64,000 nucleotides of DNA, taken from contig CAZYPX010000001.1 of assembly GCA_964649675.1 (NCBI GenBank), forward strand, positions 10,470 to 74,469. The letters are read 5' to 3'. Positions 1-38,482 of the stretch are shown here, piece by piece; the first letter of the stretch is position 1, and each line of letters opens with the position of its first letter. The notes under the pieces are model-generated. The model was not told the DNA's origin. It searched no databases and saw only the letters and a list, made by a program, of their open reading frames with translations. The stretch is from an uncultured Rhodospirillaceae bacterium (GTDB lineage: Bacteria; Pseudomonadota; Alphaproteobacteria; UBA9219). The translations under genes were made by a program, and so were the position numbers.

Positions 1-136
1 CGAAGGCTTGGATATCACGTTGACGGACTCCTACGTCTACCAGCGCCAGATCTGGGAGAAGAACCCGGCAACCGCCGCCAACTGGAGCGAGGCCGATATC
101 AACGCCGCTGAGTTTGGCTACAAGGTTCAAACGTAA
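1..136 (+). CDS. 3' end of a phage-like structural (possibly tail-fibre-type) protein; 5' part lies outside the window
   Basis: Frame-2 reading frame is open from the window edge to TAA at 134-136 (…DITLTDSYVYQRQIWEKNPATAANWSEADINAAEFGYKVQT). The context is phage-like. No homology was verified. Confidence 0.3.
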   Translation, partial: EGLDITLTDSYVYQRQIWEKNPATAANWSEADINAAEFGYKVQT

Positions 137-360
137 GAAGAGATCGACATGCTCCGAATTACCCAAACCGCGACGGAAGTCATCCGCCGTCCTACGACTG
201 CGTCCCTGCGCACCTCGCATGTTACAGCCGAGGTTGTGTCACGTCCCGTAACGCGGCATGCTCGAACCACCCACGTCACCGTTGAAATCCTGCGCATGAA
301 CGCCGCACCGGCAACAAACGATCAGCAACCAATGGTCATCATCGTCGCTGGATAAAGCCC

Positions 361-663
361 ATGACTCACCCCCAATCACAACCTGCGCCCTTAGCGCCGG
401 GACAGGAGAACTTTGCCATGAGTCCCAATGAGCAAATCGAGTACTTCCGCAGTATCGGACGGCTAGAGGCGCAAGTTTCAGCGTTGGTCAGCGCTGTGGC
501 CGAACTCAAAACCAAAATGGATGGCATCGACGCGCGGCTCGATCAGCTCGACCGTTTGGCCAATCGATGGAAAGGCGGCTTCGCCGTGATCCTCAGCCTC
601 GGCGCGCTGGCTGGTTTCGTCCTCGACAACCTGTTCCGGTGGTGGACTGCCAAGGGCCAGTGA
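361..663 (+). CDS. hypothetical coiled-coil protein with C-terminal transmembrane helix (phage-associated; holin-like or tail-assembly-like)
   Basis: 100-aa ORF with a central heptad-like region (LEAQVSALVSAVAELKTKMDGIDARLDQLDRL) and a hydrophobic C-terminus (GGFAVILSLGALAGFVLDNLF). Confidence 0.35.
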   Translation: MTHPQSQPAPLAPGQENFAMSPNEQIEYFRSIGRLEAQVSALVSAVAELKTKMDGIDARLDQLDRLANRWKGGFAVILSLGALAGFVLDNLFRWWTAKGQ

Positions 664-785
664 ACACAGCCGGAACCGATCACATGATAATCAAAACGGG
701 CCAATAATCGCCATCAGATAACCCCTTATCTCCTTGATAATCAAGGCGGAAAGAGCGTGAATGATGGTGTGTTAAGGCAAGAATT

Positions 786-1103
786 ATGGAGGCTACTATG
801 AGCAGCAAATTGAATTACCGCGCCATCATTGACGACGTCCAATCCGAGAAATGCAGTGATGAAGAATTGGCAAACCTTCTCGAAATTTTTGAATACGCCG
901 TCAAGAGCATGGCTACGACCCTGGCCTGCAAGGCATGGTTTGATCTGAATGATTTCGCCACCGCAAAAAAGCGGGGCGTCGATGGCTTTATGCTCGTGCT
1001 TGATAAATATCCCCATGCACAGGCCAACCAATGGAAAGGCACCTTTGAGAAGGCAGGCAGGACGGTGAAGGTTTTTTGCACGCTGGAGAAAGATCAGTCT
1101 TGA
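786..1103 (+). CDS. hypothetical protein (105 aa)
   Basis: ORF with an AT-rich codon profile like the surrounding island; no recognisable motif. Confidence 0.25.
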   Translation: MEATMSSKLNYRAIIDDVQSEKCSDEELANLLEIFEYAVKSMATTLACKAWFDLNDFATAKKRGVDGFMLVLDKYPHAQANQWKGTFEKAGRTVKVFCTLEKDQS

Positions 1104-2029
1104 GGGATATCCCAATCGGCCATGCGGTGCTCCCCGGTCTGATAAAACTGACGCACCAATTTGATGCATTCGAGAAAGTCCACATTTTCTTCCGCAAGCC
1201 TGTTCGCTGCATTCCAGTCAACATCCATGCGCTCCCGTGAGGGGATTAGGATTTCGCTATCCGCAGGGCTCTCCACGTCAAGCTTGATAACGCCAATGCC
1301 ATGCAGCCCAGCCAGCATGCGTAATTCCTTTTCTGCACCCTGAATTTCGGCAGCAACAAGATAACCAAAGTTTGACCACGAAGAGTTGCTGACAGCCTGA
1401 AAATAAGCCTCGCGCACATTCGAACGATTGATCAGCTTTTTTACTTCAAAAGACCACAGCTTGGTTTTGCGATCAGCGATTTGCTTCACGCAATCCTTGA
1501 TTTCTTGATGCCACTCCCGGCTGAGGTCTTCCAAACCAACAAGATCAGGGTAAAGCCAGCGATTGCCTCCGGCACCATGATTGTTGTGCGCGCGTTTTTC
1601 GTTAATGCGCTTGCTAAAGACATTCAGTTCGCGCCATAGGAACTCACTGAGCATGGGATAAAGATCATGCTCGGTATATTTCAGAGATGCATCAGCGACA
1701 ACCTGACGTGTGTTTTCTACCGCCGCCGCCTCGGCTTCATCGGACTTGGTGCTGAAGTAGTATTTGCGCGGCCGACCATCGGTTGTTTTCAGTTGCGGGG
1801 ACCGTTTCTCCATTAGCGGACGTTGTGCACTAATCTCGGCGACCAGTTGTTGAACCAATGCGGCATCGGAATCGAGAGGGATAACCGTGGCCTTACTGCG
1901 CTGCTGTTTTTCACGGCACTCAGCCGGATAAGTCTTGAAAATCCAATCCGCGATTTGCCGCGCGGTGAATTTTTCGTCCGGATGAGACTGCAGGAATTCC
2001 AGAACAGTTTTCGACAGGTTCAGCAGCAT
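1094..2029 (-). CDS. Mrr-like restriction-endonuclease-type protein (N-terminal winged helix plus PD-(D/E)xK core)
   Basis: 311-aa ORF. N-terminal part looks like a wH DNA-binding domain. It carries the motif …NRWLYPDLVGLED…WSFEVKK…, which fits D…(D/E)xK. Confidence 0.45.
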   Translation of the reverse strand: MLLNLSKTVLEFLQSHPDEKFTARQIADWIFKTYPAECREKQQRSKATVIPLDSDAALVQQLVAEISAQRPLMEKRSPQLKTTDGRPRKYYFSTKSDEAEAAAVENTRQVVADASLKYTEHDLYPMLSEFLWRELNVFSKRINEKRAHNNHGAGGNRWLYPDLVGLEDLSREWHQEIKDCVKQIADRKTKLWSFEVKKLINRSNVREAYFQAVSNSSWSNFGYLVAAEIQGAEKELRMLAGLHGIGVIKLDVESPADSEILIPSRERMDVDWNAANRLAEENVDFLECIKLVRQFYQTGEHRMADWDIPQD

Positions 2030-2140
2030 GAGTCCTTCCTTGTTAGGACGCGATAATAAGCAATTTGCCTAAAACCACAATCAGGAAGCGCAAAGCCTGA
2101 CTTTTTCAGGATTTTCAACACACAGCCACAGGAGAACGAC

Positions 2141-2812
2141 ATGACTACCCATAAAACGGGGCTGACGCCGCGCGGCATACGCAACAACAACCCAGGCAAC
2201 CTCCGCAAAACGAATGACAAATGGCAAGGGCTGACGGATCCGCAGACAGACGCGGTTTTTTGCACGTTCAAAAGCCCAATTTATGGGATCCGTGCGCTAG
2301 CGCGAACGCTGATCGCCTATCAGGACGATCACAATCTTCGCACGATACGGCAGATCATAAGCCGCTGGGCACCGACCTTGGAAAACGACACGGTCGCCTA
2401 TATCAAGGCTGTCGTTGAAACCACCGGATTCACGCCAGATCAAACTCTCGACATGCATACCTATAATCATCTGAAGCCGCTGGTTCAGGCGATCATCAAA
2501 CACGAAAACGGTCAACAGCCCTACACAGCCACACAGATCGACAAAGCCTTGGTGCTGGCGGGTGTGGAGCCTCCGGCCAAGAACCTCCAACACACGCGCA
2601 CCGTAAAGGGCGGACAGGCCGCTACGGCGGCAACCGTGGGTCTTGGTGCGCTGGAATCCATCCGTGACAGCCTCGACCCGGCACGCGACACGCTGCAAAC
2701 GCTTGTTCCTTACCTCGACATCGCCAAATGGCTTCTGTTGGTAATCACGTTGCTCGGCGTTGGCGTCATGCTCTGGGCGCGGATTGACGATTACAGGAAA
2801 GGACTGCGCTGA
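2141..2812 (+). CDS. phage-derived protein with C-terminal membrane anchor, first gene of a lysis-type cassette
   Basis: 223-aa ORF with the motif GIRNNNPGNLR, which I recall from phage virion or lysis proteins. It has a C-terminal TM helix (WLLLVITLLGVGVMLWA) and is directly followed by spanin-like genes. Confidence 0.4.
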   Translation: MTTHKTGLTPRGIRNNNPGNLRKTNDKWQGLTDPQTDAVFCTFKSPIYGIRALARTLIAYQDDHNLRTIRQIISRWAPTLENDTVAYIKAVVETTGFTPDQTLDMHTYNHLKPLVQAIIKHENGQQPYTATQIDKALVLAGVEPPAKNLQHTRTVKGGQAATAATVGLGALESIRDSLDPARDTLQTLVPYLDIAKWLLLVITLLGVGVMLWARIDDYRKGLR

Positions 2813-3051
2813 TGTGGACGCTTTTATCTGGCTGGCTAACCAGCAACGTCCTGAAACTGATCGGCTGGAGCACAGTAGCTTTATCCGTCCTCGCCGTCCT
2901 ATTCGGCGCACGCCAATCCGGCAAAAACGCCGAGCGCTATGACCAACTCAAGAAAATCGTGGAGATCAAAGATGCGCAATTACGTGCAACGCTTTCTGCC
3001 CCTAGTACTCGCGCTGAGCTTGTTGAATGCCTGCGGGACGGGGATTTCTAG
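2812..3051 (+). CDS. i-spanin (Rz)-like inner-membrane protein
   Basis: 79-aa ORF with an N-terminal TM segment (LIGWSTVALSVLAVLFGA) followed by a charged or coiled region. Its start overlaps the stop of the upstream gene (ATGA). Confidence 0.4.
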   Translation: MWTLLSGWLTSNVLKLIGWSTVALSVLAVLFGARQSGKNAERYDQLKKIVEIKDAQLRATLSAPSTRAELVECLRDGDF

Positions 3052-3205
3052 ATCAGCCTGTGTTTGTCCTCCAATCAAGGCGTATAGCAAAGAGATTCAG
3101 GTTGCTCTAGCGGAAGAGATCAAAGCTGCTCCTTCCGGCGCTGTATTTCCTCAATTTTTAGGTGATTATGCGCTGCTACGAAATCAAATTGGTCTATGCA
3201 AATAA
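2972..3205 (+). CDS. o-spanin (Rz1)-like lipoprotein, encoded out of frame overlapping the i-spanin gene
   Basis: GGAG lies 7 nt upstream of ATG 2972. There is a signal peptide plus a lipobox-like LLNAC, and the mature part is Cys- and Pro-containing (CVCPPIK). This is the classical overlapped Rz/Rz1 geometry. Confidence 0.4.
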   Translation: MRNYVQRFLPLVLALSLLNACGTGISRSACVCPPIKAYSKEIQVALAEEIKAAPSGAVFPQFLGDYALLRNQIGLCK

Positions 3206-6200
3206 TCCATTTGCGTTGGGTCTGTACTCGAACTTCACACGCAATCGTTTGGCACGTTCTTTAAAAGCAGCCTCTCCACCTTCTAGAATTTCACAAACTT
3301 TCCGTCGAATTTCAGGATTTTCCAACCCACCGCTGAAGTACCGAATTTTTGGAAGCTGATTTTGTTGATGCTTTCCACAAGAAGCAATGATTATCTGGTC
3401 TGCATCAGTATTAACAACAAGATTAGCATTATGAGTCACGATAATAATTTGACGACGCTTTCGCGCTGATTTAAACAGAGGAACGAGTTCATCGAAGATT
3501 GATTTTGGATCAAGGTTTTCTTCCGGTTGATCAATAATAAGAGGGCGGTCATCTTCTTTGTCTACCAGTAAATACAATGATAACAACACGATTCCGCGAG
3601 TACCTGGCGATAGCTGCTTTATATCGACCCCTTCATGTTGGATGCCATATTTTACCGTTATGTGGGCTGTCCCATATAGCCAATCCGCAACGTTGTTTGC
3701 CCAGGATCTAAAAGCTGGACGGTCACTTTTTTCAACTTGTGAATGTTCCAGAAGCCCCTGATCATATTTTTCACGGAATAAATTAAGAGCAGACACTATT
3801 TCATCAGAATTTCCTTTCTCCCATGCCACCTGAAGCTCGTTCTGAACCGCAGTTAAAAGTGCTCCCTTACCCTTAAATGGACCTGCTTTTCGCAAATCAA
3901 GAAGCGATTCTCCGCGCTCCGACCAAGATTTTATATCAGCCCGACGCTGCACAATAAAAGAAAGCTTACCAACGGTGCCTTCCTGAGCCTGAAGGTGCTT
4001 CATTAGCGGTTGGTAAAGTGCCTTTAATTGATTTTCCTCTTCTTGAATTGCTTCCAGTACAGCTCTGTACGCTTTTTTCCGTTCATCAATGATATCTTTA
4101 ATTCGTCCAGAAGCTTTTTCAGCGGCTTCAATGTCGCGTTGCAGCTTAGCTTTCTCGGCCTCATCCTTGGCTATTTTTTGACTTATGCGTGCGTATTTTT
4201 TTGCGTTTTCGTTATCAACGCCAATGAGCTGCTGCAACCTAGCAAGCTCTGCGCTTAACAATTCAAACGTTTGTTCATTCAAAGGTACTCCGGTAGGAAT
4301 TAGCGAGTCCACATGAGAGTTCTGAGCCGAAATCGCAGTTCCCGTAATTGATTTTACCAATAAATCAACTTTCTCGTTTTCACATTTGAGAATGGCATCG
4401 ACATCTCCCGCAAATTGAAAGTGGAATTTGTTCCATTGATCCTCATCGAGAAGAGCCGCAGCATGGGTTGTATGTAGTTTTCTAAATGTTTGCGGAAACA
4501 CAGAAGCCTTTATGTTCTTAATTTCTTCCTGTAAGTTTTTGAGAGCTAGTTGCCGTCTTTTCGCGGCTTCGAGTTTCGCACGTACCGAGTCAAGCGCTAA
4601 TGCAACTTCTCCATGCTTTGTTGCACGCTCTTCTTTGCCTTTCCCGACAAGCGACTGTCGATCTTTCTTATCGTTTTCTATGGCTCTTTCTTTTTCTCTC
4701 AATTGTTTCTTTAGTGCTGGAAGACTATCTATTTTTTCACGTTCTGAATTAAGCTCATCCGAAAGTGCCGATAAATGTTTTTCATGGTAGTCCCGAGAGG
4801 CCTTTGCTTGCGCTGAGCGTAAATCAAGTAACTCTCGAAAACTTCCTGCACCCATTCGATCTTCTAACTTATGAGCTTGAAAGATAACCCGTTCTATCTC
4901 TTCCATTAACTTATCTGTCGGCCCTTCTGCGGTACATAAATCTTCAACAAACTGCTGTGAAAGATACTGGACACGAGGAACATCTAGTAACTCTTCGATT
5001 TCAACAAATCGAAGGCCGTTGCTTGTAGACTCTCCCGCGCCCCATACCAGAGTAGCCGTTTCGTCGGTAAATAACTCATTCGCACGATGAATAAATGATC
5101 TCTCGTTCAACTGCGATAATGCCGAATAGCCACCGACGGCAACAAGATCCGCAAGCGCTGTTTTTCCAGAGCCGCGTGCGCCGATGACCGCTATTAAACC
5201 GGAATTAAGTTGTATGCATGAGGTTTCCAGCCAAGCTGCATCGCTTACGTGAACACTTCGAATAATCTGCGAGGGCGTTCCTCCTGTCGGGCAATTCTCA
5301 GCGATGCAAACGCGTCCATCTGGTTCTATGCACGCTTGCCTAAGTGATTCAAATGTCAAATCACCCTTAATCCATGAATATCTGTTTAAAGCGGGATTTG
5401 CGACAGCAGCTTGCTCATGAGCATCGCAGCCATGTAAACATGGCTTTCTTCCATCGTACATTTCTTCGAGTTGAACGGTTGATAGCCTTCCTTTCCCCAA
5501 CCAAAACTCTCTTTGTTTGGGGTTCGATGAAAATATGATGTGCGATACCCGTTCAATTTCGATTCTGGTTGCAGCAAAAGTAGCATCTTGCTGCAGTCCT
5601 GAGGTTCCATCCGAACCATTACCAGAAACCGCAACGAGAATATTTTGAAGTGCCCATTCGTTCTGCCTGAAAACACCTCTTAGTTGATCTAGGGAGATTT
5701 TAAATTGATTGGTTCCTGCTGAAAGCGCCTGCTTTTCATCCAAGGTTGCACCGCAGCACGCCCTTCCAAGCAGTATTAGATCCTCGCGTTCACATCTGTA
5801 GGTTTCTTTGCCGTATTCAAAGGAAAAGTTCTTTAAAAAACGTTTGATTTGATCGACATGATCAGGATCGTCAGGTGATACGAGAAAATGAGTGTTTATA
5901 GCTGTCCCGCGAGATGTTCCAACGATTAGCCGAAATTCAATGTTCGGAAAAATTAATCCGACATTTTTTAGACGTCCTGTTGCTTTATATTCCAACACTT
6001 TCTCGTAGTTCTTCAGGCTTAAGTAATCTGTATAGCCGAGCTAAAATAAAATGATCAAAAGAAGGAAACCAAATGGGATCCCCGCCTTCGCGGGGATGAC
6101 GAGTATGGGATTCATTTCAAAATATAAAACCGTCATCCCCGCGAAGGCGGGGATCCCATTTTTTGAATCATTTTATTCTGGATCAGCTATAATGCCAAGG

Positions 6201-6394
6201 GCACGAATTTGAGGATCAGACGATTCAATTTGAGAAAGAAAGGAATTCCACGGATCTTCTCCATTAAATTGATCGTTTAATATTGTTTCAGGCGTATGTA
6301 TGTGGGGATCCCAGCGATGCCAAACTGATCCTTCAGGATTTTTTGTAAAATCTCTCTTTGTATTTGGTTCCTCTGTTTTAGCGGCAATTTGCAT
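3194..6394 (-). pseudogene. PHP-domain fused to ABC/SMC-like coiled-coil ATPase (about 1000 aa), reading frame interrupted by a palindromic insertion
   Basis: The upstream 73-aa ORF (6394-6173) carries WDPHIHTPET (PHP motif I). The 934-aa ORF continues the PHP fold (NIEFRL, INTHFLV, CLHGCDAHE matching GSDAH-like motif IV). It then carries Walker A VIGARGSGKT and a coiled coil of about 400 aa. The ABC signature LSPGTRG, Walker B LIIDQPEENLD and H-loop VTHN follow. Both ORFs are in the same frame (coordinate mod 3 = 1) and are separated by the 6041-6176 element, which supplies TAA and TAG stops. Confidence 0.6.
6041..6176. mobile_element. MITE-like palindromic element (about 136 bp) inserted inside the PHP-ATPase gene
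   Basis: Perfect 28-nt inverted repeat AATGGGATCCCCGCCTTCGCGGGGATGAC / GTCATCCCCGCGAAGGCGGGGATCCCATT around a 33-nt core. It is flanked by outer inverted ends AAAATAAAATGAT / ATCATTTTATT that carry stop codons. Confidence 0.6.
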
Positions 6395-6493
6395 AACTAT
6401 CTCCCCACGATATTCTGTCGTTCCAGATTAAACTCGATAGTTCACGAGCATACTGTTAGGCAATAAAAGACCGACTCGTTTGATAAAGCCGAG

Positions 6494-9001
6494 TTAACCC
6501 GCTACGTTTCCGCGATATTCCACAACAGTCAGAACGGTATCGTATAAACCAACATCTTCAAGCTCGTGCTTGTTGATACCAGTGTATTCAAGGCTAGCAT
6601 CCTCATAGCGTTTAAATTTGTAGACAGCATCATTCATCAATGCGCTGTTGAAAACGCCAAGGCTGACCAGTAGCTCGAAGTCTTTGACGATCAATCCCGT
6701 AACTTTTTTAAACAGGCCGGGTTCAAGCTGAGTGACAACATCTCTTAAGGCTTTCTCGCGGTAATCCGTGAGATACATAAAAACGGGAATACGCGTGGCA
6801 AACTTGATAAGCTTTTCTTGAATTTGCTTGCGAAGGCTTTTGTATTCTCTTTCTTCTTCGCTTAACTGCTTCTTTTCTTTAGCCGTCAGTTCACGCTCAT
6901 TGGCTGCTTGTTTGGCCTTTTGGACAGCATCTGATTTGTTAATGATCGTTTCAATATCCTCATTGAGTGTGCGAAACCCTTCAATTCGCATTAATGCATC
7001 CATCGCGTCCTTATTTTTCATCAAGCGGTGCAGAGTGTTGTTGTCCACATTGACCAACAGAGCACTTTCCCAACGCCGTGCCAGCAGCGTGGCTGTCGTA
7101 CCACTCATTGCCATATCTAATACACCGGCGGCATTGATTTGCTTCATCGAACTACCGTCGTAAGCCAGTACGGGCAGGAAGTGTATAAACTCCTCAACCT
7201 TTTTCTCGGGGTTCGCTTCATCAATGTTCAAACGGCAGCTGTAATCTGCGATCTGACGAAGCGCACGATCGGGTGCAAAATCAAAAACGTAACACTCACG
7301 CTTGATGATTTCCTGCTTGTTCGGTGATTTGCTATCAGGGTTTTTGATGACCCACGGCGTCTGTACGCGGAACGCGGCCTGAAAATATGTCTCAGGACTT
7401 GAGCAATTTCTCAACATGAGAATACCAGTCCAAGGCTTAACCGAGACACCAGTGGTTAACTTACCGCAAGAAAGTGTAATGGTCTTTGAAATTAAAGGGT
7501 TGTCCATTGCATCTTCAACAGGTGGTAATGCCGCAACACCGAGACCTGCCTCAGAACCTGCAGCAACAATAATCTTATAGTCCTGGTAAAATTTGTTCTG
7601 CCGTTGCTTAAGCAAGTTTTTCATCGCATGGCACGATGAGACAGAAGGCAAAAACCAAAAAGTATGAGAAAGCACGTTAAGCAGTCGCGCGTCTGAAAAA
7701 GGCATGGGTGGTTTTTCTGCACCAAGCTTCAAGTTATCGACAGTTGTTTCCAAGAACGCACCACGTATCAAATCCAGCCATTTCTGGACATCGCTTTCAT
7801 ATTTAAACTTAGCTTTTGAGCCTTCACCGTTCGCTGAAAAAAAGATGTTCAAGTCGAACTGGTTATACTCCCCGCCCATGGCGATCTCACGAATAGAATC
7901 CGGCAACTGGTAGGTTAGCATGACCAAACGTGGCAAAGACTCATAAGGGTTGTTTTCGCCCTTCCATTTTTCCTTGGCGCGCTGCTCATCAGAATATGTC
8001 CAATTATAAATCTGTTCCTCGATGAACTCACCAGCAGCAATAGCGCGGAAAGGAGTGCCTGAGAGATAAAGGTATGCCGAAGTTGTAATCGGCATATTGC
8101 TCTCGTCAAAAAATTCCAAGCCTCTACCTTCGGCATCACGTATTTCTCGCTCGTCCTCGGCTTCAAAGAGATCTTTCGCGTTCTCGCGCCACGCGCCGTA
8201 ATGATATTCGTCAAAGGCTACGCAATCCCAATTTGTGGTGTGCACCCATTCATTTCTCGCCTTGATGCCACCAGCGGAATTTTTGCCCAAATAGTCTTGA
8301 AATGAGCCAAAGCAAACGATAGGCCTCTTCGGGTCAGCTTCCTCAAAAGAAAGACCGTTCCTGGAAATAAACTGCCAGCCTTTGAAATCGACGTGAGATT
8401 TAAGATCTTCCTCCCAGGCGCTCTGCACAGCGGGCTTAAAGGTCAAAACTAAAATGCGCTTCCATCCCATCTTTTTGGCAAGCTGATAGGTGGCGAATGT
8501 CTTGCCAAAACGCATTTTCGCGTTCCAAAGGAAGTGTGGCGTCTTCTTAGGATTTTCTTTCCTGAAACTTTTAAAGTAGGCAGCTGTTTTCTCTACAGCT
8601 TCCTGCTGTTCGGGTCGCATCCCAAAATCCAGCGTCCGGTTCTCCTCATTCTCAATCCCATCACGCACGGCGACGATTGACGCCTTCACGTCTTTCACGG
8701 AACACTTGAACCATTCGCCATCAGGGTTCTTGAAACCCTTCTTCTTCAAATGGCGATGAATATCGTGATCAGTGAAAGAGCTGCCGTCCTTGCGCATGGC
8801 AGATTCTTCAAGCACGATTTCGTACGGAAGTTTTCCGGGACGAAGCGTCGGGTATTGTTGTGCAACACGACTTTTAACATCCACGCTGGTAAAGCCAACT
8901 TTTAACAACCCGGCATATTGGGGGTTTGTATCACGGTAAGCATAGATTGTTGGCTTAGCCTCTGGCCTTGGCGGAAAGAAAACATCACTCATCCGTGACA
9001 T
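6494..9001 (-). CDS. SF2 helicase (ResIII/DEAH-like) with N-terminal T5orf172 (GIY-YIG-like) domain
   Basis: 835-aa ORF. N-terminus [22 protein letters not shown]…EWFKCS fits T5orf172. It is followed by Walker A-like RFGKTF and a DEYHYG box. The gene overlaps the upstream MTase gene by 17 nt. Confidence 0.6.
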
Positions 9002-22684: not shown

Positions 22685-22712
22685 CTTTGTTCTCCTTCTG
22701 GAAACGGTTTCA

Positions 22713-27998: not shown

Positions 27999-28024
27999 AC
28001 CACAAAATTAACAGGAGAATACAA

Positions 28025-31152: not shown

Positions 31153-31171
31153 CGAACCAATCCAAAATGTT

Positions 31172-31831
31172 TTAAGCGTTTGTGCGAGCGGTAAGCGGTC
31201 TGCCTTTTTCCCAAAAGACGTGAAATTGTGTGCGATGGGAGCTGGCCATACGTGTGGACGTGAAGACAAGATACCTGTAATTGCCGTTTTCTTCCAGGAG
31301 GACGTGAGCGTATTTATTGCCGTAAATATAAAACGGTGGCGGCATAATCGAGAAGCTGGTTATTGCGCGAAATTCAAACTGCGGAATTCTCATAGCAAAT
31401 TCGGAAGTTTGCGGCAGCAAGCATTTCACAGGAGCAATTTTGCCGATCTGCAGCAGTCGATCCATCGCATTTGGCCCAACGGCCCCACACGTATCGGCAA
31501 GCATCTCGGAGGATTCCATCATTGAAACCACGTCCCCGCCTCGCAGCTGTATAGTGGTCTTCAGGTCTTCGAGGAAACATTCGGTGCTTTTCTCGCCCAT
31601 AAAAACGTCAAAGTCTCGACGGCGTTGAACGCCTTCGGCGGTAGTAAACTCCAGTCCAGCCTTCTCGACAGCGCGTTTAATGTTTTCAGCAACTCTCACG
31701 CTTGGGACACAGCCCGTTTCGATGTTGCGGATCGTTGAAACGGCGACACCTGCTTCTTCAGCCATTCGTTCCTGAGACCAGTCAAGCATGGCTCTGGCGG
31801 CTTTGATTTGAGCTGGCTGCAAGCGGTACAT
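31172..31831 (-). CDS. XRE-type HTH protein with conserved C-terminal domain (paralogue 2)
   Basis: IKAARAMLDWSQERMAEEAGVAVSTIRNIE plus the shared C-terminal blocks. Confidence 0.55.
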   Translation of the reverse strand: MYRLQPAQIKAARAMLDWSQERMAEEAGVAVSTIRNIETGCVPSVRVAENIKRAVEKAGLEFTTAEGVQRRRDFDVFMGEKSTECFLEDLKTTIQLRGGDVVSMMESSEMLADTCGAVGPNAMDRLLQIGKIAPVKCLLPQTSEFAMRIPQFEFRAITSFSIMPPPFYIYGNKYAHVLLEENGNYRYLVFTSTRMASSHRTQFHVFWEKGRPLTARTNA

Positions 31832-31852
31832 AAGTTTGTCCTTGAAAATCTT

Positions 31853-32155
31853 TTATTCAAATACTTCGTTCGCCACCTTGGCATCTTCAGCTTGATCTGC
31901 GGAAGAGTGTTGCTGAAGTTTTTCCTTCAACGAAACCCCATGCTGCGTAAAAAACTCAACACCGTGATCTGAAAATACGCTTATAATTTTCTCAACTGTC
32001 GCAGCGGTCGGCATAAACTGACCGTGCTCGATATTTTTTACTGTTTCAGCGGAAATACCTACGAATTTCCCGCATTGCGCTCGACTCCAGTCCAACAGTG
32101 CTCTGGCAGCACGAAGTTGTACAGGTTTGATGGTTGTAGGGGTCTGCTGCTTCAT
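31853..32155 (-). CDS. short XRE-type HTH protein (HTH module only; paralogue 5)
   Basis: VQLRAARALLDWSRAQCGKFVGISAETVKNIE…HGVEFF. The likely start is M29 of the listed ORF (32155), which avoids overlap with the upstream gene. Confidence 0.45.
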   Translation of the reverse strand: MKQQTPTTIKPVQLRAARALLDWSRAQCGKFVGISAETVKNIEHGQFMPTAATVEKIISVFSDHGVEFFTQHGVSLKEKLQQHSSADQAEDAKVANEVFE

Positions 32156-32168
32156 AGTTCGGCTCTTG

Positions 32169-32489
32169 TTAGTTGATGGCCTCGGCAAAGTTAAAATTGA
32201 CGAGATAACGAACGACATCATCAAATTGATCTCGTTCAAAATCTTTGACGGCTTTAACGCCGAAGGCTGTCGTCAAAATTGCGACAACCAGTTCTGCACT
32301 AACGTTTTGTGAGTAGGCCACGTAGGCAACTACAGCAGAAACTGCTCTCAATTCCTGTTGTGCAAACTTCCCCGTATAAAGGGAGGCAAGCTCTATATTG
32401 ATGGGATTTGCGCGTTCGGCGAAGTAGTCATGCGCCGGTTTGGCTTCCTCAATCATTTTACGAATAAGAGCTTTACGATCTGACAACAT
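32169..32489 (-). CDS. small protein of unknown function (paralogue A)
   Basis: Shares a conserved core (…A.V.AYVA.SQ.V..E.V..I.TT..G..AV…Q…Y.D.VEYLV…) with 32506-32832. Confidence 0.35.
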   Translation of the reverse strand: MLSDRKALIRKMIEEAKPAHDYFAERANPINIELASLYTGKFAQQELRAVSAVVAYVAYSQNVSAELVVAILTTAFGVKAVKDFERDQFDDVVRYLVNFNFAEAIN

Positions 32490-32505
32490 GACGAACCTTA
32501 AATAA

Positions 32506-32832
32506 TTAGTTCACAACCTGATCCATCTTCAAATCTACCAGGTACTCAATGGCGTCTTGATAAAGGCGCGAAGGCAGCGCCGCCACGGCACCGATACCAT
32601 AATGAGTTGTAATGACCTCACACACGGTCTCTTCCCGAACTTTCTGCGTATGAGCTACATAAGCAATCAGGCCGAGAACAGCGGTCAGCTCAATTTTGTT
32701 CAGGGATTTTTCGTTGGCTTTCCGATGGGCAATGAGGGCAGAGGTCAAACGGTTAAGCTCGCCAGTCGAGATTTCACCATCTTCCGTTCGGTCGCTTGAG
32801 ATAATCGCTTTTTGAATTTTCGAACTGGTCAT
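32506..32832 (-). CDS. small protein of unknown function (paralogue B)
   Basis: 108-aa tandem paralogue of 32169-32489. Confidence 0.35.
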   Translation of the reverse strand: MTSSKIQKAIISSDRTEDGEISTGELNRLTSALIAHRKANEKSLNKIELTAVLGLIAYVAHTQKVREETVCEVITTHYGIGAVAALPSRLYQDAIEYLVDLKMDQVVN

Positions 32833-32853
32833 TTGAAATCCCTCTCTGTAAAA

Positions 32854-33060
32854 TTAGGCCATACCTGCGGCATACGCTCCCGTTTCACTGGTGAAATATT
32901 TGTCCGTTTCGCGGATGAAATAATTCCAGCGATCCTCTAAGGACATCACAACTTGATGTTTGATTTTCATGTGGCGTTCCCAGCCTTCGACAATCTCGTG
33001 GGCAACGCTTTCGCCGCGTGTTGCGACATATGTGTCAAAATGCATCGTCATTAATTTCAT
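32854..33060 (-). CDS. hypothetical small protein (68 aa), first gene of the small-protein/XRE operon
   Basis: ORF with a plausible RBS context, sitting at the head of a five-gene minus-strand array. Confidence 0.25.
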   Translation of the reverse strand: MKLMTMHFDTYVATRGESVAHEIVEGWERHMKIKHQVVMSLEDRWNYFIRETDKYFTSETGAYAAGMA

Positions 33061-33282
33061 CCCTTAAAAAATAACGTCAATTTACCCTTAATGTTTGTGA
33101 CCTTACCAAACGGGTCGGGTGAAAGCAAGGTAATAGTTTATGTGAGAGATACTCAAAGTTACTTTAATAGTAATATTGCAGCCACCAGAAAAGCCTGCAG
33201 AAGACCAAAATCTTTAACTACTTCTTAACACTTAACAGCGCCATACCCATAATTGGTAGATTAGTACCAATAACCGGTAAAA

Positions 33283-33304
33283 TTTTGCCGATCATCTTCT
33301 TGCT
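33283..33304 (+). promoter_or_regulatory. palindromic candidate operator AATTGGTA-N6-TACCAATA upstream of XRE paralogue 3 and AsnB-like 2
   Basis: The perfect 8-nt inverted repeat with a 6-nt spacer lies about 70 nt upstream of ATG 33377 in an AT-rich promoter region. That region also holds three CTTAAC direct repeats (33216-33240). Confidence 0.3.
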
Positions 33305-33376
33305 TTTCTTGTGCAACTATTTCTGCTATGGTAATTTAAAATTACTCTGAGAGATACATTTCAACAGGAACAAGCC

Positions 33377-34036
33377 ATGCCAACAGGGAAACAAGTCAGG
33401 GCTGCACGGGTTCTCGCTGGATGGGATGCGGAGCATCTTGCGCAAAGCACAGGTCTCACCGCCGTCACCATCCTAAAGATTGAGCGAGACGAAGCAATGC
33501 CACGTCCGGCCACGATGGAGAAAATTGTTCGGGCGTTTGACAAAGAAGGCATCGAGTTCACCGACAACCAAGGCGTTCGATTCAAACCAACGGGCGTTAC
33601 CGTATATGATGGTGTGGCTGCCTTCGAAGACTTCCATGAATTCCTGTATCTCCATTTGAAACAACACGGCGGTGAAGTTTGCCTGAGCATTTATGATGAA
33701 CCTTCGCTCGCCAAGTACCGTAAAGATCCTGAAATACATCGCTCACGCATGAGAGAGTTGGTAGGTAGCGGAAAAGTCACCTTCAGAATACTGACGACAC
33801 AAAGCAGTTGGAATACGCGTGGGTACATTCAATTTAAATGGCTGCGAAACCAACGGCCTTTACCTACAGGCTTTTATGCGTTCGGAGATTGCTTGGCATT
33901 GGTGTCATTTGTTGATCCGCAATCGCCATATGTTGTCGTTCTTCAATCAGGGCCAATGACTGAAGCCTATCGCCAAGGCTTCAATATCGCATGGGATTCA
34001 GCGGAGAATCCCCCAAGCGAAGGCACCGATAAATGA
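33377..34036 (+). CDS. XRE-type HTH protein with conserved C-terminal domain (paralogue 3)
   Basis: VRAARVLAGWDAEHLAQSTGLTAVTILKIE plus the shared C-terminal blocks. It is followed 13 nt later by AsnB-like 2. Confidence 0.55.
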   Translation: MPTGKQVRAARVLAGWDAEHLAQSTGLTAVTILKIERDEAMPRPATMEKIVRAFDKEGIEFTDNQGVRFKPTGVTVYDGVAAFEDFHEFLYLHLKQHGGEVCLSIYDEPSLAKYRKDPEIHRSRMRELVGSGKVTFRILTTQSSWNTRGYIQFKWLRNQRPLPTGFYAFGDCLALVSFVDPQSPYVVVLQSGPMTEAYRQGFNIAWDSAENPPSEGTDK

Positions 34037-34049
34037 GTGGGGAATAGCT

Positions 34050-35876
34050 ATGTGTCGAATCTTCGGACAATTAGGCCATCCTCATATTGATGAAAGAGTA
34101 TTGCAGCGAGTTGCGCTCGCTATGGTGCATGGCGGCCCAGATCGTCAAAATTACGTAGTCGGCAATATGTGGGCCATGGGCAGCGACCGCTTGGCTATAC
34201 AAGGAATCGAGGGCGGCAATCAGCCATTCACAGAGCACAAAGGTCTCTGCATTTTATTCAATGGCGAAATTTACAATCACCGTGCGCTCAGAGAAGACTT
34301 AAGAACACAAGGCTTCTCCTTTTCTGATGAATGTGACGGCAACGTTATTGCGCCGCTATTTTTGCTCCATGGGGCGGATTTTGTCAGATATCTTGAAGGC
34401 ATGTTTGCCATTGCTCTGTTGGACGAGCGCAGCCAGCCGACGCTTTATGTGTATTCAGATCCGTCTGGTATGAAATCCGTCTACTACCAATGGGACAGCA
34501 AAAACCAAGTTCTGAGTTTTGCTTCCGAAATTGAGGGTTTGGCTTTGTTGACGCAGACCCCGCTTACTATCAAGCCCAAGCCCCTTTACGATTACTTTTC
34601 TTTACGTGCTATTTGTGGCGAAGAAACGATTTTTCAGAACATTTCTACGCTGGGGCCAGCTCGCATGTTGCGCTATGAGTTGGGCAAAGAGCCACAAATT
34701 ACTACTTATTCCTCCGCCGCAAAGTCGGAAACACCCGATAACGATCTAACGAAGGCCGGACTTCAACTGCGTGACCTTCTGGACAAAGAAATCGCGTTGC
34801 AGCTGGCTTCAGATATGCCGGCGTGCCTTGTTATAAGCGGAGGTGTAGATTCGTCCCTAGTCGCGGCTTTGGCAGCTCGACAAAAGGATAATCTTCACTC
34901 ATTTCACCTTTGTTATAAGGGCAACTGGCCGTACGACGAACGAAGGTATGCGCGTGACACAGCCGAGAAATGGCGCATCAATCATCATGATGTCGAGCTT
35001 GATCCGGATACATTCCCTGCCTCTATTATGAAAATGGTTCGGCATCTCGGACAGCCTAACTGGGCACCCCATACCTTAAGCACCTACTGTTTATTCGAAG
35101 AAATTCACAACTCTGGATTTAGAGTTGCTATTACTGGTGAAGGTTCTGACGAGTTTTTTGGCGGTTACCAATATTACAGTTCAGCCTTGGCCGAGGGCAA
35201 TAACTGGGTTGATGACTTTTTGTATAAACTCAGTCCATTTACGAAAACAGTGCGCGACGATGTGCTTGCTTCCGATTATAAAGAACTTCTATGCAGCCAG
35301 ACAACTCACGTCGAAGAGTACACCAAACAATTAGAGAAAACGCGTCCTGGCGAGGAACGGCTCAATTTGATGCAATCCTTCGATCAACAAATGCGTTTTC
35401 CAAATTATATTTTGCGTCGCGGCGATCATTTGAGCATGGCACATGCTGTTGAGATGCGTGCTCCGTTTTGTCAACCACGCATCATGGATTTTGGATCACG
35501 CTTACCGTTTGGGCATCGCGTGTCAGTGGAACAAAGAAAACGCACAGTTTATGAAGCGGCACGCGGGCTTGTTCCCGACTCCGTAATGAACCGCGAAAAG
35601 CAAGCATTCGTTCTTCCGATTACAGAAATGATAAAACGTGGAAGTCGATTGTACGATTTTATGATGTCTATTTTTGAATCGGCATCATTTCGTCATCGTG
35701 GCTACTTTGATGCGGATAGGATATTGGCTTATTCCCAGCAACAAGCCAAAACTCCAAGCGTTGATGTTGCCAATGCGATGTGGGCGGCAATGTCTCTTGA
35801 ATTATGGCTTCAATATATTGACGAAATAAATTCGGAACTTGAGTTGTCCCCCTTGGTCGAGCAGGAAGTGGCTTGA
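34050..35876 (+). CDS. asparagine synthetase B-like glutamine-dependent amidoligase (second copy)
   Basis: MC N-terminus, PP-loop VISGGVDSS, 608 aa; paralogous to 26130-27998. Confidence 0.7.
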   Translation: MCRIFGQLGHPHIDERVLQRVALAMVHGGPDRQNYVVGNMWAMGSDRLAIQGIEGGNQPFTEHKGLCILFNGEIYNHRALREDLRTQGFSFSDECDGNVIAPLFLLHGADFVRYLEGMFAIALLDERSQPTLYVYSDPSGMKSVYYQWDSKNQVLSFASEIEGLALLTQTPLTIKPKPLYDYFSLRAICGEETIFQNISTLGPARMLRYELGKEPQITTYSSAAKSETPDNDLTKAGLQLRDLLDKEIALQLASDMPACLVISGGVDSSLVAALAARQKDNLHSFHLCYKGNWPYDERRYARDTAEKWRINHHDVELDPDTFPASIMKMVRHLGQPNWAPHTLSTYCLFEEIHNSGFRVAITGEGSDEFFGGYQYYSSALAEGNNWVDDFLYKLSPFTKTVRDDVLASDYKELLCSQTTHVEEYTKQLEKTRPGEERLNLMQSFDQQMRFPNYILRRGDHLSMAHAVEMRAPFCQPRIMDFGSRLPFGHRVSVEQRKRTVYEAARGLVPDSVMNREKQAFVLPITEMIKRGSRLYDFMMSIFESASFRHRGYFDADRILAYSQQQAKTPSVDVANAMWAAMSLELWLQYIDEINSELELSPLVEQEVA

Positions 35877-35892: not shown

Positions 35893-37770
35893 TTACTTGT
35901 TGGAATTGATAATTTCTCGCAGAAATGCTTCCCCATATCGCTCCAGCTTAGCCGCGCCAATCCCCGAAATGTTCCCCATCTCCTGTAACGTCTTTGGCTG
36001 CGCTTTGGCTAAACCAATCAGGGTTGTGTCATGGAAAATGACATAAGGTGGCACGTTTTGCGCCTTGGAGAGTTCGAGACGCAAAGCACGCAAGCGTTGG
36101 AAAAGTTGTTCGTCGTCCGCATTGTCCAGAGTTGGTTTGCCCTTTGGGCCTTCGGAGGCTGAAACGCGCTTTGATTTAACCTCACGTCTAAGCGCAAAAG
36201 TGGCATCCTCACGCAGCGTCACTTTCTTCTCGCCGCGTAAGACCGGTTTGCATAGCTCGTCGGATCCCAACCGTAAACCGCCATGCCCTTCCATGTCTGT
36301 AACAAGCAATCCATGAACGACAAGCTGGCGAAAAATGTCGCGCCACTGAACGCGGCTGAACTCCTTGCCCACACCATAGGTCGGCAACTGGTTGTGCCGG
36401 AACTGGCGAATGCGTTCGGTATCCGCGCCAACGAGCACGTCCGTCAGATGGGCCGCGCCGAACCTCTGGCCGGTGCGGATCGCGCACGACAACGCCTTTT
36501 GCGCGGCTACGGTGCCGTCAAAAGAGGGAACAGGGTGAAGGCACAGGTCACAGTTGCCGCAGGGTTCGGCAAGTGTTTCCCCAAAGTATTCCAGCAGAAC
36601 CTGCCTGCGGCATCGGGGGCTTGAGCAATAACCGATCAAGGCATCCAGCTTGCGGCGCTCCAGTTGCTTGCGCTGTTCGCTTGCTTCGCCGTCCTCGATC
36701 ATCTAGCGCAGCTTGGCGACATCCTCAATGCCGTAGAGCAGCAATGCTTCCGAAGGCAGGCCATCGCGTCCGGCACGGCCTGTTTCCTGATAGTAGGCCT
36801 CGATGCTTTTGGGCATATCCATGTGAACAACAAAGCGCACATCCGGCTTGTCGATCCCCATGCCAAAGGCGATGGTTGCCACGATGATCACGCCTTCGTC
36901 TTTGATAAACCTGTCTTGGTTTCGCGCACGGACATCGGCTGCCAGTCCTGCGTGATAAGGAAGCGCGTTATAGCCTTGTCGTGCCAACCAATCGGCGATC
37001 TCCTCAACACGAGCGCGGGACAAGCAATAGACGATTCCGGATTCCCCGGCGTGATCTTTCTTTAGAAACCGCAACAACTGCTCGCGCGGCTTGGCTTTCG
37101 GCGTGACATGATAGCGGATGTTTGGACGATCAAAGCTGGAAATAAAGATGCGCCCGCGTTCCAATTTCAGCTTTTTGACAATCTCATTACGAGTCGGCAC
37201 ATCGGCGGTGGCCGTCAAAGCGATGCGCGGGACATTCGGGAAGCGTTCATGCAAAACAGTCAGTTGCAGGTATTCAGGTCGGAAATCGTGCCCCCATTGG
37301 GAGACGCAATGCGCCTCATCAATGGCAAACAGAGAAATCTGGCATTCGCCCAACAGGTTGAGCGTTCCCTCCATCAACAGTCGTTCTGGCGCAACGTAAA
37401 GAAGATCAAGTTCCCCGGAGCGCATCTTCCCGATAATCCGTGCAGCTTCGCCATTCCCCAGTGTTGAATTGAGCGCTGCTGCCCGAACTCCAAGCTGCTT
37501 TAAAGCCTCCACCTGATCTCGCATCAGGGCAATCAGCGGCGATATCACAACTCCAACGCCTGGACGGCATAGGGCGGGTATTTGAAAGCACAGTGACTTT
37601 CCTCCGCCCGTAGGCATCAGCACAAGAGCCTCGCCGCCGTTTACCGCATGCGTGATAATTTCTTCTTGCCTGCCCCGAAAAGAGTCAAAACCAAAAACAT
37701 TGCGCAGAACATCAAATGAATCGGCTTGCTTTGCTTTTGTGATTTCACAGTTTGGCGAGGACAATTGCAT
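35893..37770 (-). pseudogene. recQ: recQ helicase gene interrupted by a single in-frame TAG (helicase core, then Zn-binding/WH/HRDC part)
   Basis: The 355-aa ORF (DEAH helicase, …[25 protein letters not shown]) stops at TAG 36703-36705. The next codon is the ATG of a 269-aa ORF in the same frame (…CGNCDLC… then an HRDC-like C-terminus). Together they align collinearly with RecQ as I recall it. Confidence 0.7.
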
Positions 37771-37776
37771 ATGTTC

Positions 37777-38208
37777 TTATCGGTTTTTCAAATTTCCAAA
37801 TTTTTCTTCTAGATTTTTTCCTGTCAGCCAATCCTCCAAAATCTCTGGTTCGTCCCATTTGCTTGTCCAAGCTTTAGTCTGCTTATCCATGTTGTCCTCG
37901 AACTCAAAGTCGCCATCCTCCATGCGATTGAAAATCGTATAAATCCGGTTCACAACCTGTTTCATGAATTCGCGCATTTCTTCTTCGTTTATGTGTGAAA
38001 CCTGTTTCCAAGGAATCTCACCGTACGGCGAAACCACTTTGACATCCGAATAATCGCCTGTTTTGCTGTCGGGATATGTGCCCCTGTGGAACTGCTCAAG
38101 CATTGTCGTGCGTACGCAATGGAAGGCAAAGTTTTTTGCCACACGTTTCAGCGTTTCTTCTTTGATGGACATATTCGACTCGTAAGTAAGGAAAAAACGT
38201 GAGTACAT
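37777..38208 (-). CDS. hypothetical protein (143 aa), AT-rich
   Basis: ORF only; its composition resembles the island. Confidence 0.3.
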   Translation of the reverse strand: MYSRFFLTYESNMSIKEETLKRVAKNFAFHCVRTTMLEQFHRGTYPDSKTGDYSDVKVVSPYGEIPWKQVSHINEEEMREFMKQVVNRIYTIFNRMEDGDFEFEDNMDKQTKAWTSKWDEPEILEDWLTGKNLEEKFGNLKNR

Positions 38209-38429
38209 TAGATGAAATTTTCCGTGCTCGCGATCCCTATAAAACTGGCATATTTCAATTTACTCCGCTCTTTCGATCCCAATCCCGCGCGACATCCAGC
38301 CCGTAACTGATAGACACAAGTATGGGTAAAACATGGGTAAGAATTATGGGAAAAACTGACAATTTCCGATGCATAACGAACAAAAATATGCAAAAATATC
38401 AAAATTGAGTGGTAAAATAATGGGTTAGG

Positions 38430-38482
38430 AGACCCGTTGACATGGTAGGGGTCACAGGTTCAATCCCTGTCGCACCCACCAC
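38430..38482 (+). other. 3' fragment of a tRNA gene (T-arm plus acceptor plus CCA); probable att-site remnant marking the island boundary
   Basis: …ACAGGTTCAATCCCTGTCGCACCCACCA has a perfect T-stem/loop and a 3' acceptor strand with discriminator A and CCA. No complementary 5' acceptor strand (GGGTGCG) or D-arm exists upstream, so it is not an intact tRNA. Confidence 0.5.

Follow-up and report, generated by a model that had tools for sequence, protein, structure and literature searches.

The locus examined here raises the question of whether a long AT-rich tract that ends at a displaced tRNA fragment was acquired as a single island. The DNA analysed, hereafter the window, is a 64,000-nucleotide stretch from an uncultured Rhodospirillaceae bacterium. 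An earlier note, made from the letters alone, had read positions 1–38482 as one genomic island or degenerate prophage. Calculation of the GC content showed that this tract is indeed AT-richer than the remainder (0.486, or 48.6%, for 1–38482 against 0.541, or 54.1%, for 38483–64000), and phage late and lysis genes together with three defence modules make it rich in mobile DNA. Its composition is uneven: 0.528 at 1–3205, 0.449 at 3206–11400, 0.536 at 11401–13050, 0.47–0.50 between 13 and 36 kb, and 0.521 in recQ. The neighbouring core stands at 0.577 from polA to typA and at 0.526 at 46–64 kb; thrS, which the earlier note had named as part of this core, was not seen among the right-hand ORFs that were scanned.

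It is scarcely credible that the tract is native chromosome of an ordinary kind, with its lower GC explained by gene content and its tRNA fragment incidental. Although argH, recQ and some segments come near the GC of parts of the 46–64 kb core, this reading has to accommodate the phage late and lysis genes, the three defence modules, a MITE insertion and several phage-type regulators, as well as a defence block at 0.449 GC, compared with 0.54–0.56 in the core loci of relatives.

A tRNA-Val(GAC) fragment marks an integration junction beside polA

The tRNA piece is a 3′ fragment of tRNA-Val(GAC), located at 38437–38481 on the + strand. It runs from the anticodon loop through CCA, is identical at 45 of 45 positions to the tRNA-Val(GAC) of locus L056, and is missing its 5′ half. 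The orphan tRNA 3′ end described earlier is therefore genuine, but it is 45 nt long, not 53. The 25-mer quoted for it occurs once in the window (38457–38481, + strand), with 0 occurrences expected by chance. Alignment to tRNA-Val(GAC) ruled out a long-arm tRNA (Leu/Ser) and tRNA-Val(CAC).

The first base of the anticodon loop is where the identity begins, and four independent tRNA-Val fragments from other alphaproteobacterial MAGs begin there too; the same tRNA-Val 3′ repeat is also borne by IMG/VR proviruses. The site classes used by tDNA-integrated elements, including the anticodon-centred class, the principle behind them and the frequency of anticodon-centred sites have been set out for the Islander collection (Hudson et al. 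2015, PMC4383910). Two hallmarks of these islands are found here: a separate tRNA gene fragment, usually the 3′ part, and a boundary at a known crossover sublocation, here the anticodon loop. On sequence grounds, 38437–38481 is a genuine attR-type integration scar, a direct repeat of the integrase type oriented with the element on its left, as had been proposed. Two loci played no part in this comparison: L087/L033 was dropped as a textbook tRNA-Val islet control because no integrase was recognised there, and a tRNA-Thr call in L234 was disregarded, as it falls within coding sequence.

The counterparts of the scar were sought in the window and in the sequence to its left (L001, 8.9 kb, −8906 to 0; the metagenome contig runs to about −10.5 kb). 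No second att copy was found in the window or L001 by mismatch search, blastn-short, Smith–Waterman alignment or a repeat finder, and neither holds a cognate intact tRNA-Val. Within the window, no tRNA of any kind was detected by ARAGORN or by Rfam at its gathering score. The ORFs scanned over 1–38.5 kb, nearly all those of at least 140 aa not overlapped by a longer ORF, gave no match to Phage_integrase, so that the tyrosine integrase typically carried inside an Islander element was not found in this interval; the integrase of a related provirus, used as a tblastn query, had no match in the window. The intact tRNA and int gene predicted to lie beyond coordinate 1 thus did not appear in the 8.9 kb covered by L001.

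The flank that separates the scar from the stop codon of polA (38482–38724) contains the polA terminator hairpin (38654–38669, − strand). On its other side the scar adjoins an AT-rich arm of 228 bp (38209–38436, + strand, 0.43 GC), in which three ATGGG(T/A)AA repeats (38322–38353) may represent candidate arm-type integrase sites. A 9-mer, AGTATGGGT, common to this arm and the arm of locus L062 was set aside as a hint only, its chance occurrence being estimated at about 0.1–0.3. Beyond the arm is orf143 (37777–38208, − strand), which matches no Pfam or PHROG family; hypothetical proteins encoded by Caulobacter/Brevundimonas jumbo phages and by alphaproteobacterial conjugative plasmids are its homologues, which places it in this phage/plasmid gene pool.

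Might the scar have arisen by some route other than integration at this spot? It could be an unrecombined attP copy that arrived with orf143, or a resident tRNA-Val whose 5′ half was deleted. In keeping with such an origin, both sides of the scar are unalignable with L208, the closest polA relative, where homology ends 19 nt past the polA stop codon, and a weak tRNA-like Rfam match extends back to 38403. This match, however, scores 21.3 bits, below the 29-bit cut-off, and its stems are unpaired; moreover, the tRNA sequence breaks off precisely at the anticodon-loop boundary seen in integrase-made tRNA-Val repeats elsewhere, a point that a random deletion would seldom hit. We consider a non-integration origin very unlikely. 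As for island-free relatives, a genome scan found no polA near tRNA-Val at at least 119 tRNA-Val loci, among the matches listed; a metagenome scan with polA yielded relatives of at most 67% identity, with no synteny found; and no tRNA-Val lies near polA in L208 or L209.

A temperate prophage occupies the left edge of the window

Positions 1–3205 (+ strand) carry the distal end of the late operon of a temperate, lambda-like siphophage whose tail module is of the RcGTA type, as judged by collinearity with related proviruses. The start of the window falls inside a 342-aa tail-associated ORF, whose C-terminus extends to 136 (+ strand), which accounts for the tail gene fragment seen before; this ORF comes after a 1066-aa Phage-tail_3/Rcc01698_C host-specificity gene. 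It is followed on the + strand by small ORFs at 149–355 and 361–663, one of which has one TM helix and is a possible holin, and by an ORF at 786–1103. A 311-aa gene on the − strand (1094–2029) is an insertion, missing from related proviruses. The phage lysis cassette recognised earlier is confirmed on the + strand as an endolysin (2141–2812; phrog_873, 2e-62) and overlapping i- and o-spanin-like ORFs (2812–3051 and 2939–3205).

The nearest relative of this prophage is UViG_3300028241_004058, an IMG/VR provirus of 42.4 kb. The structural and lysis genes of L001 and window 1–3205 are collinear with this provirus and with L228, and the late genes run in parallel through the spanins. The aligned late-region blocks share 66–87% nucleotide identity with UViG_3300028241_004058 up to window position 3050, and the tail genes 81–87%; its tail protein is 90% identical, whereas that of the more distant alphaproteobacterial phage PhiJL001, gp86, is 35% identical. 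The window differs from UViG_3300028241_004058 in holding only the last ~3 kb of the phage, with different cargo and the extra 311-aa gene, and of its own prophage copy only the part between about −10.5 kb and 3.2 kb is known. The relative encodes int, xis, a cI-like repressor, a gpA terminase, a lambda-family portal, a primase and a helicase; its ends are trimmed, and its att site lies outside the record. L062 genes located 159 nt downstream of an intact tRNA-Val encode proteins that share 62% and 81% identity with its Int and Xis, respectively. By way of the relative's integrase, the left-edge phage family can be linked provisionally to tRNA-Val as its attachment site, in keeping with the tRNA-targeting integrase that the earlier note had envisaged.

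The tail module shares the families DUF2460, Phage_phiJL001_Gp84_N/BR0599 and Phage-tail_3/Rcc01698_C with RcGTA-type clusters, which are head–tail clusters without lysis, integrase or replication genes. Unlike these, the phage here has a lysis cassette after its tail genes, and its relative carries integrase, excisionase, repressor and replication genes. We therefore regard it as a prophage and not a gene transfer agent.

Defence genes follow the lysis cassette

All three defence modules noted earlier (3194–6394, 6494–11201 and 13094–18806) were recovered. The first is a Ppl-like PHP/ATPase gene (3194–6394, − strand; PADLOC Ppl, 3.8e-27). A Ppl defence protein would be expected as one unbroken chain of about 900 aa; here the best stretch of profile match takes in the C-terminal part only, and the reading frame is broken by a palindromic MITE-like insert of ~150 bp (6031–6191), the two pieces of the gene being separated between 5998 and 6173. 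The stop codon of this gene overlaps the o-spanin gene's end, so that there is no gap between them.

The second is a restriction-modification-type operon (6494–11401, − strand), comprising a 68-aa HTH_17 protein (11196–11401; PF12728, 1.4e-17), a short methylase-like ORF (10546 to ~11201), an Eco57I-family methylase (8985–10553) and a T5orf172 plus ResIII helicase gene (6494–9001), all on the − strand. The HTH_17 gene had been taken for an AlpA/Xis gene. Its product does have the small HTH_17/MerR-type DNA-binding fold of such proteins, but the gene adjoins neither an integrase nor an att site: no integrase is found nearby, the scar is 27 kb away, and the gene is translationally coupled to the methylase operon. 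The protein is only 32% identical to the Xis of the related provirus.

Three small ORFs with a host-like GC of 0.536, one of them BamE-like (11535–13018, − strand), separate this operon from the third module (13094–18806, mixed strands), which consists of a WYL/WCX regulator (+ strand), a 441-aa ORF whose family was not recognised (+ strand) and a 1139-aa RNaseH-like plus SF1 helicase protein (− strand) whose C-terminus resembles Mokosh MkoA. The related provirus L228 carries different restriction genes, a Z1 helicase and type III-like Mod/Res, at the same post-spanin position. Comparison of these two family members suggests that the left prophage carries swappable defence genes directly after its lysis cassette.

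An arginine cluster, a regulator-cassette locus and recQ fill the remainder of the tract

An arginine/citrulline gene cluster occupies 18921–29137 (mixed strands). It includes an argH that passes the TIGR00838 cut-off, along with ArgE/DapE-family deacylase, argG-like, CtlX-like and arginine-dihydrolase-like genes and a gene for a 298-aa protein of unknown family; an asparagine-synthase-like gene and a weakly GCS2-like gene are divergent to the arginine genes. Next is an Xre-regulator cassette locus (29138–35876, mixed strands) that encodes three paralogous HTH_3 proteins (219–229 aa), a 128-aa HTH protein, paralogous 106/108-aa ORFs, a NUDIX protein, several small ORFs and a second AsnB-like protein (34050–35876). 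The locus is collinear with L223, with its enzyme cassette swapped: the enzyme is AsnB-like in the window and an EgtD-like methyltransferase in L223 and L208. Its pair of a regulator gene and a 100-aa gene has a counterpart in the lysogeny module of the phage family itself.

The adjoining recQ (35893–37770, − strand) is full length but for a single nonsense codon, TCG to TAG at codon 356 (36703–36705). Because the recQ-cassette block is collinear with L223 at 88–90% nucleotide identity, it behaves as inherited sequence, and a related cassette adjoins polA in L208. In L223 and L224, truncated late operons of the same phage family abut the 5′ side of recQ and read away from it; on the other side of recQ, L224 continues into host DNA (tRNA-Thr, murJ, infC). 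The contig of L223, NODE_4448, was rejected as the left neighbour of the window: its phage genes show only 52–63% protein identity to the relative and its recQ does not occur in the NCBI source, which makes such a join unlikely.

A true argH is unusual for a phage arm and favours a mosaic, as do a canonical recQ and a regulator-cassette locus that in relatives stands in other contexts. The left 38 kb is thus probably a patchwork of separately acquired phage-derived, defence and accessory DNA, and its acquisition as one island, as first supposed, is unlikely.

The scar may be the last remnant of a separate prophage

Which element left the scar? Our tentative preference, to which we give a little under an even chance, is that the scar, the 228-bp arm and orf143 (37777–38481) are the last remnant of a separate prophage between recQ and polA, within a mosaic tract. 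Crossover by a tyrosine integrase in the anticodon loop of tRNA-Val duplicated the segment from the loop to CCA and left the displaced original 3′ end beside its native downstream flank, polA. The element responsible would have been a lambda-like temperate phage of the same family as the left-edge prophage, integrated between recQ and polA in a tRNA-Val(GAC) gene; deletion from the attL side would then have removed the regenerated tRNA, the integrase and nearly the whole phage. The DNA to the left of recQ, namely the Xre-cassette locus, the arginine cluster, the WYL–helicase module and another prophage belonging to that family, would have a history of its own.

A separate prophage is the most likely source of the scar because the truncated prophages of L223 and L224 abut the 5′ side of recQ, which is the position of the scar, and the affiliation of orf143 with the phage/plasmid gene pool adds support. 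Several observations weigh against this remnant. An intact recQ–tRNA-Val(GAC)–polA arrangement was not seen in any relative examined, and the regenerated tRNA must have been deleted here and likewise lost from L223 and L224. The left prophage is oriented as if the scar were its own attR, and the window has no other att copy. In the MAG with L224, recQ shows 91% identity but polA only 69%, so that recQ may be mobile or the contig mis-binned. Finally, the left boundary of the whole tract lies beyond the sequence covered.

Some of these observations would fit a single composite element of ~78 kb, a reading that comes near to that of the earlier note and that we find rather doubtful but worth weighing. 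The left prophage would sit at an intact tRNA-Val ~40 kb to the left of the window, and the 45-nt piece would be its own attR, or that of an older island onto which the phage was later stacked; the 35 kb from the spanins to orf143 would be either a right arm that had become inflated or an island that had accreted. Late genes and scar lie on strands that agree with this arrangement, the integrase of the closest relative is of a family that occurs next to tRNA-Val, and the window contains a single att-like repeat and no integrase. The gapless junction of the Ppl-like and spanin genes indicates that cargo starts inside the phage arm, and L228 shows cargo at the same position. However, a phage of ~42 kb whose large terminase is of the lambda type (gpA) could not package a further 35 kb, judging from the size limit of lambda-type cos packaging, and the tandem version calls for a second integrase as well as an att copy inside the tract, neither of which is present (criteria from PMC4383910). 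The arm would also have to hold argH/argG, recQ and a locus found in other contexts in relatives, and the phage remnants of L223 and L224 lie on the 5′ side of recQ, not the 3′ side.

Discussion

The fragment beside polA resembles those of the Islander tDNA islands and prophages (Hudson et al. 2015, PMC4383910): the same anticodon-loop-to-CCA piece is displaced, the element lies on its 5′ side, and the attP is of the anticodon-centred class. It differs from them in that no intact cognate tRNA or integrase was found in the window plus 8.9 kb to its left, and in that the DNA beside the fragment is mostly not one element. Islands and prophages integrated at tDNAs are reportedly also treated in Williams 2002. 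A tRNA scar is not by itself enough to set the limits of an island; in this case the scar most likely records a phage since lost, beside AT-rich DNA of several separate origins.

Prophage arms harbour hotspots of defence genes, such as the lambda b-region and the P2/P4 hotspots. The two members of the present family that were compared likewise hold unrelated defence genes at one fixed post-lysis position, Ppl-like plus restriction-modification genes in the window and a Z1 helicase plus Mod/Res in L228. This post-lysis hotspot and the swapping regulator–enzyme cassettes provide leads for defence-system mining.

A bolder reading, which we regard as unlikely, is that one phage family has, in this uncultured alphaproteobacterial lineage, repeatedly landed and decayed at the tRNA-Val site beside recQ, with recurrent left-end deletions removing the tRNA and integrase, and that the neighbouring locus swaps whole cassettes of Xre HTH_3 regulator and enzyme. 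If so, the locus, phage-derived and hypervariable, would act as a switch for defence or for small molecules, of a so far undescribed kind.

The tract does not overturn current understanding and is a known kind of mobile DNA mosaic. Its main value lies in annotation: a real integration junction beside polA is pinned down by the 45-nt piece, and tRNA-Val is identified, by way of a relative's integrase, as the probable attachment site, in an uncultured alphaproteobacterial lineage, of a family of lambda-like phages that have GTA-type tails.

A tRNA-Val(GAC) fragment closes the AT-rich tract

In the window, ARAGORN detected 0 tRNA genes, and no RNA family reached its Rfam gathering score. The 25-mer quoted in the earlier note as a tRNA 3′ end is present there in a single copy, at 38457-38481 (+), with 0 copies expected by chance. 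The same 25-mer was found at at least 119 loci, nearly all from Alphaproteobacteria, in a scan of one genome per species, and the intact genes that bear it at these loci are tRNA-Val. The window's piece contains the TTGACAT loop of the GAC isoacceptor and is 100% identical to the tRNA-Val(GAC) gene of a comparison locus, L056, over 38437-38482. Since this identity opens at base 1 of the anticodon loop, and the piece lacks the 5′ strand of the anticodon stem, the D arm and the 5′ acceptor strand, it measures 45 nt (38437-38481, +). The earlier description, a 53-nt tRNA 3′ end with no 5′ half, was thus right in kind but not in length. A tRNA match in Rfam reaching back to 38403 was rejected (21.3 bits against a cut-off of 29, with ill-formed stems).

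Other alphaproteobacterial MAGs supply four independent cases (L033, L031, L027 and L072) of an orphan tRNA-Val fragment starting at the same loop position, and the tRNA-Val 3′ end is carried by 10 IMG/VR viral contigs, on several as an orphan fragment. Native downstream flank is kept beside the fragments in Acetobacter okinawensis, Asaia astilbis and Chelatococcus. When a tyrosine integrase inserts an element at a tRNA gene, the incoming DNA makes the gene whole again at one boundary, and the original 3′ part, now displaced, labels the opposite boundary. The scar in the window is the standard product of such an insertion. Anticodon-centred sites are used by about half of catalogued islands (PMC4383910). 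As the displaced 3′ fragment, the scar places the inserted element left of 38437 and the native flank from 38482 onwards; the polA terminator (38654-38669) lies inside this flank.

A lambda-like prophage and its defence cargo at the left edge

The window opens in the end of a tail-associated ORF, which accounts for the tail-gene fragment reported earlier. A metagenome contig 100% identical to window 1-32207 reaches about -10.5 kb, that is, left of the window, and its extension carries DUF2460, Gp84_N/BR0599 and Phage-tail_3/Rcc01698_C genes that read in the direction of the window. The lysis cassette was also recovered, as an endolysin (phrog_873, 2e-62) and two overlapping spanin-like ORFs. 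A close relative in IMG/VR is the provirus UViG_3300028241_004058 (42,371 nt), which was pieced together from four loci. The two tail proteins are 90% identical; at the nucleotide level, the tail genes match at 81-87% and the aligned late-region blocks as a whole, which reach window 3050, at 66-87%. Its genes run from an integrase (PF00589) and HTH_17 excisionase, through an HTH_3 230-aa/98-aa gene pair and cI-like repressor, a helicase, a Toprim primase and two methylases, to a gpA terminase and lambda-family portal, followed by a GTA-type tail, endolysin and spanins. This content identifies a lambda-like temperate phage and rules out a gene transfer agent. Between the putative holin gene and the endolysin gene, a 311-aa gene without a family match (1094-2029, within 764-2166) is encoded on the opposite strand; both related proviruses, UViG_3300028241_004058 and L228, lack it.

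The related provirus had been trimmed exactly at the integrase stop codon, so that its att site is invisible. In locus L062, an intact tRNA-Val(CAC) is followed after 159 nt by genes to which the provirus Int and Xis are 62% and 81% identical, respectively. Should the window's phage share the gene order of this provirus, an integrase would be expected some 40 kb beyond the window's left end; neither an intact tRNA-Val nor an integrase was found from -8.9 kb to 38.4 kb.

The three defence modules of the earlier note were seen in the tract, as was its AlpA/Xis gene, which encodes a 68-aa HTH_17 protein (11196-11401). The stop codon (3194) of a PHP/ATPase, Ppl-like gene (3194-6394, -) overlaps that of the o-spanin (3205); hence the defence genes start within the phage arm. 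In L228, whose tail protein is 69% identical, the same post-lysis place holds other genes, namely a Z1-domain helicase, a DNA methylase and the start of a Res-type helicase, pointing to a hotspot at which defence genes can be exchanged. A palindromic MITE-like insert of about 150 bp (6031-6191), with 31-nt perfect inverted repeats (6071-6101 and 6131-6161) and imperfect outer repeats, interrupts the Ppl-like gene in its 5998-6394 part and leaves a 73-aa N-terminal piece with an HxH motif as its own ORF.

Composition and accessory genes of the tract

Windowed composition bore out the contrast with the polA side: GC stays below that of the right-hand part until about 38 kb and then rises to 0.55-0.59 in the polA region (means of 0.486 for 1-38482 and 0.541 for 38483-64000). 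Within the tract GC is non-uniform, at 0.528 in 1-3205, 0.449 in 3206-11400, 0.536 in 11401-13050, 0.47-0.50 from 13 to 36 kb and 0.521 in the recQ segment. The ORF at 18921-20339 is a true argH by NCBIfam (592 bits; cut-off 280), with argG-like, ArgE/DapE-family, CtlX-like and arginine-dihydrolase-like neighbours. This arginine cluster (18921-29137) is low in GC, and its AsnB-like and weak GCS2-like genes are transcribed divergently.

The recQ gene (35893-37770, -) has canonical RecQ domain content and is intact except at codon 356 (36703-36705), where a single nonsense mutation turns TCG into TAG; the metagenome contigs show this mutation too. Homologues in relatives (85-96% identity) are intact, including one 91% identical, in L223, from the same metagenome. 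In the MAG of locus L224 (GCA_040275305.1), recQ is 91% identical to the window's over the N-terminal 355 aa, but a polA match apparently from the same assembly (L028) is only 69% identical; recQ may therefore have moved horizontally, or the contig may be mis-binned.

Gene order in L223 follows that of window 29.8-37.7 kb, with nucleotide identities of 88% for recQ and 90% for a 65-aa/108-aa gene pair; further along, the genes have diverged but keep their order, and the window's AsnB-like and HTH_3 cassette gives way to a 515-aa gene, an EgtD-like methyltransferase gene and one for an HTH_3 protein. The HTH_3 proteins form an Xre family (212-246 aa, conserved C-terminal domain; window 29138-35876, with three copies, L223 4388-11824, L208 13340-16400 and L266 10448-11563), often paired with an ORF of about 100 aa beside a variable enzyme, AsnB-like or EgtD-like methyltransferase. 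The pair also occurs in the lysogeny module of UViG_3300028241_004058, and one homologue lies near the tRNA-Val fragment in L072.

By polA, the closest relative is L208 (90% protein identity), which has the methyltransferase and HTH_3 cassette of L223 directly after polA, and neither recQ nor a tRNA remnant at that locus. Compared with window 38.7-46 kb and the more distant L209, in which folP directly follows polA, its hrcA-acetyltransferase-polA-cassette block is inverted relative to typA-lysE and it has an extra 698-aa gene, marking the polA 3′ flank as a rearrangement breakpoint in this lineage. polA is intact in the window (38725-41649) and split into 645-aa and 299-aa ORFs in metagenome contig NODE_952 (L007/L222), which differs from the window by 4 mismatches and 1 gap over 13.5 kb; the split is probably an assembly or population indel. 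Elsewhere in the core region, a 608-aa ORF (56674-58500) has no Pfam match, and no threonyl-tRNA synthetase, the thrS of the polA-thrS core named in the earlier note, was found among the right-hand ORFs scanned.

Which element left the scar

In both L223 and L224, the 5′ side of recQ adjoins a truncated late operon of the left-edge phage family, reading away from recQ: L223 54-766 matches UViG_3300028241_004058 at 26.5-27.3 kb, and L224 67-3238 matches it in the tape-measure region at 30.35-33.0 kb. Beyond recQ's opposite end, L224 has host DNA (tRNA-Thr, murJ and infC). In the window, the same recQ flank consists of orf143 (37777-38208, -), whose homologues occur only in jumbo phages and conjugative plasmids, a 228-bp AT-rich arm (38209-38436) and the scar. 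The simplest account, which we favour only tentatively, is that phages of this family integrate at a tRNA-Val gene beside recQ and then decay through deletions from the attL side; in the window, decay would be nearly complete, with orf143, the arm and the scar remaining. A single composite element of about 78 kb, extending from an unseen tRNA-Val to the scar, would fit the strand of the late genes and the failure to find another att copy, but it requires a 35-kb arm holding argH/argG and recQ, and its tandem version an internal att copy and a second integrase, both absent; we regard it as rather unlikely. Both accounts are qualified by the recQ of the L224 MAG, which may be mobile or lie on a mis-binned contig. 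The arm beside the scar has three ATGGG(T/A)AA repeats (38322-38353) and shares the 9-mer AGTATGGGT with the L062 arm that separates tRNA-Val from the related integrase (2520-2545); these sequences may serve an integrase as arm-type sites, the match being statistically weak.

The earlier reading of a single island ending at a tRNA 3′ fragment is borne out only in part: the integration scar is genuine, and the contents are heterogeneous (the argH cluster, recQ and the cassette locus shared with L223). Phage-derived, defence and accessory DNA together make the tract a mosaic that ends at this tRNA-Val(GAC) scar, and the finding is real and largely ordinary. Acetobacter okinawensis, Asaia astilbis, a Chelatococcus sp. 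and one alphaproteobacterial MAG (L009, L051, L075 and L033/L087) have orphan 3′ fragments of tRNA-Val(CAC); in the MAG, 5.1 kb separates the fragment from an intact gene. Integration at tRNA-Val thus seems to be common in this class.
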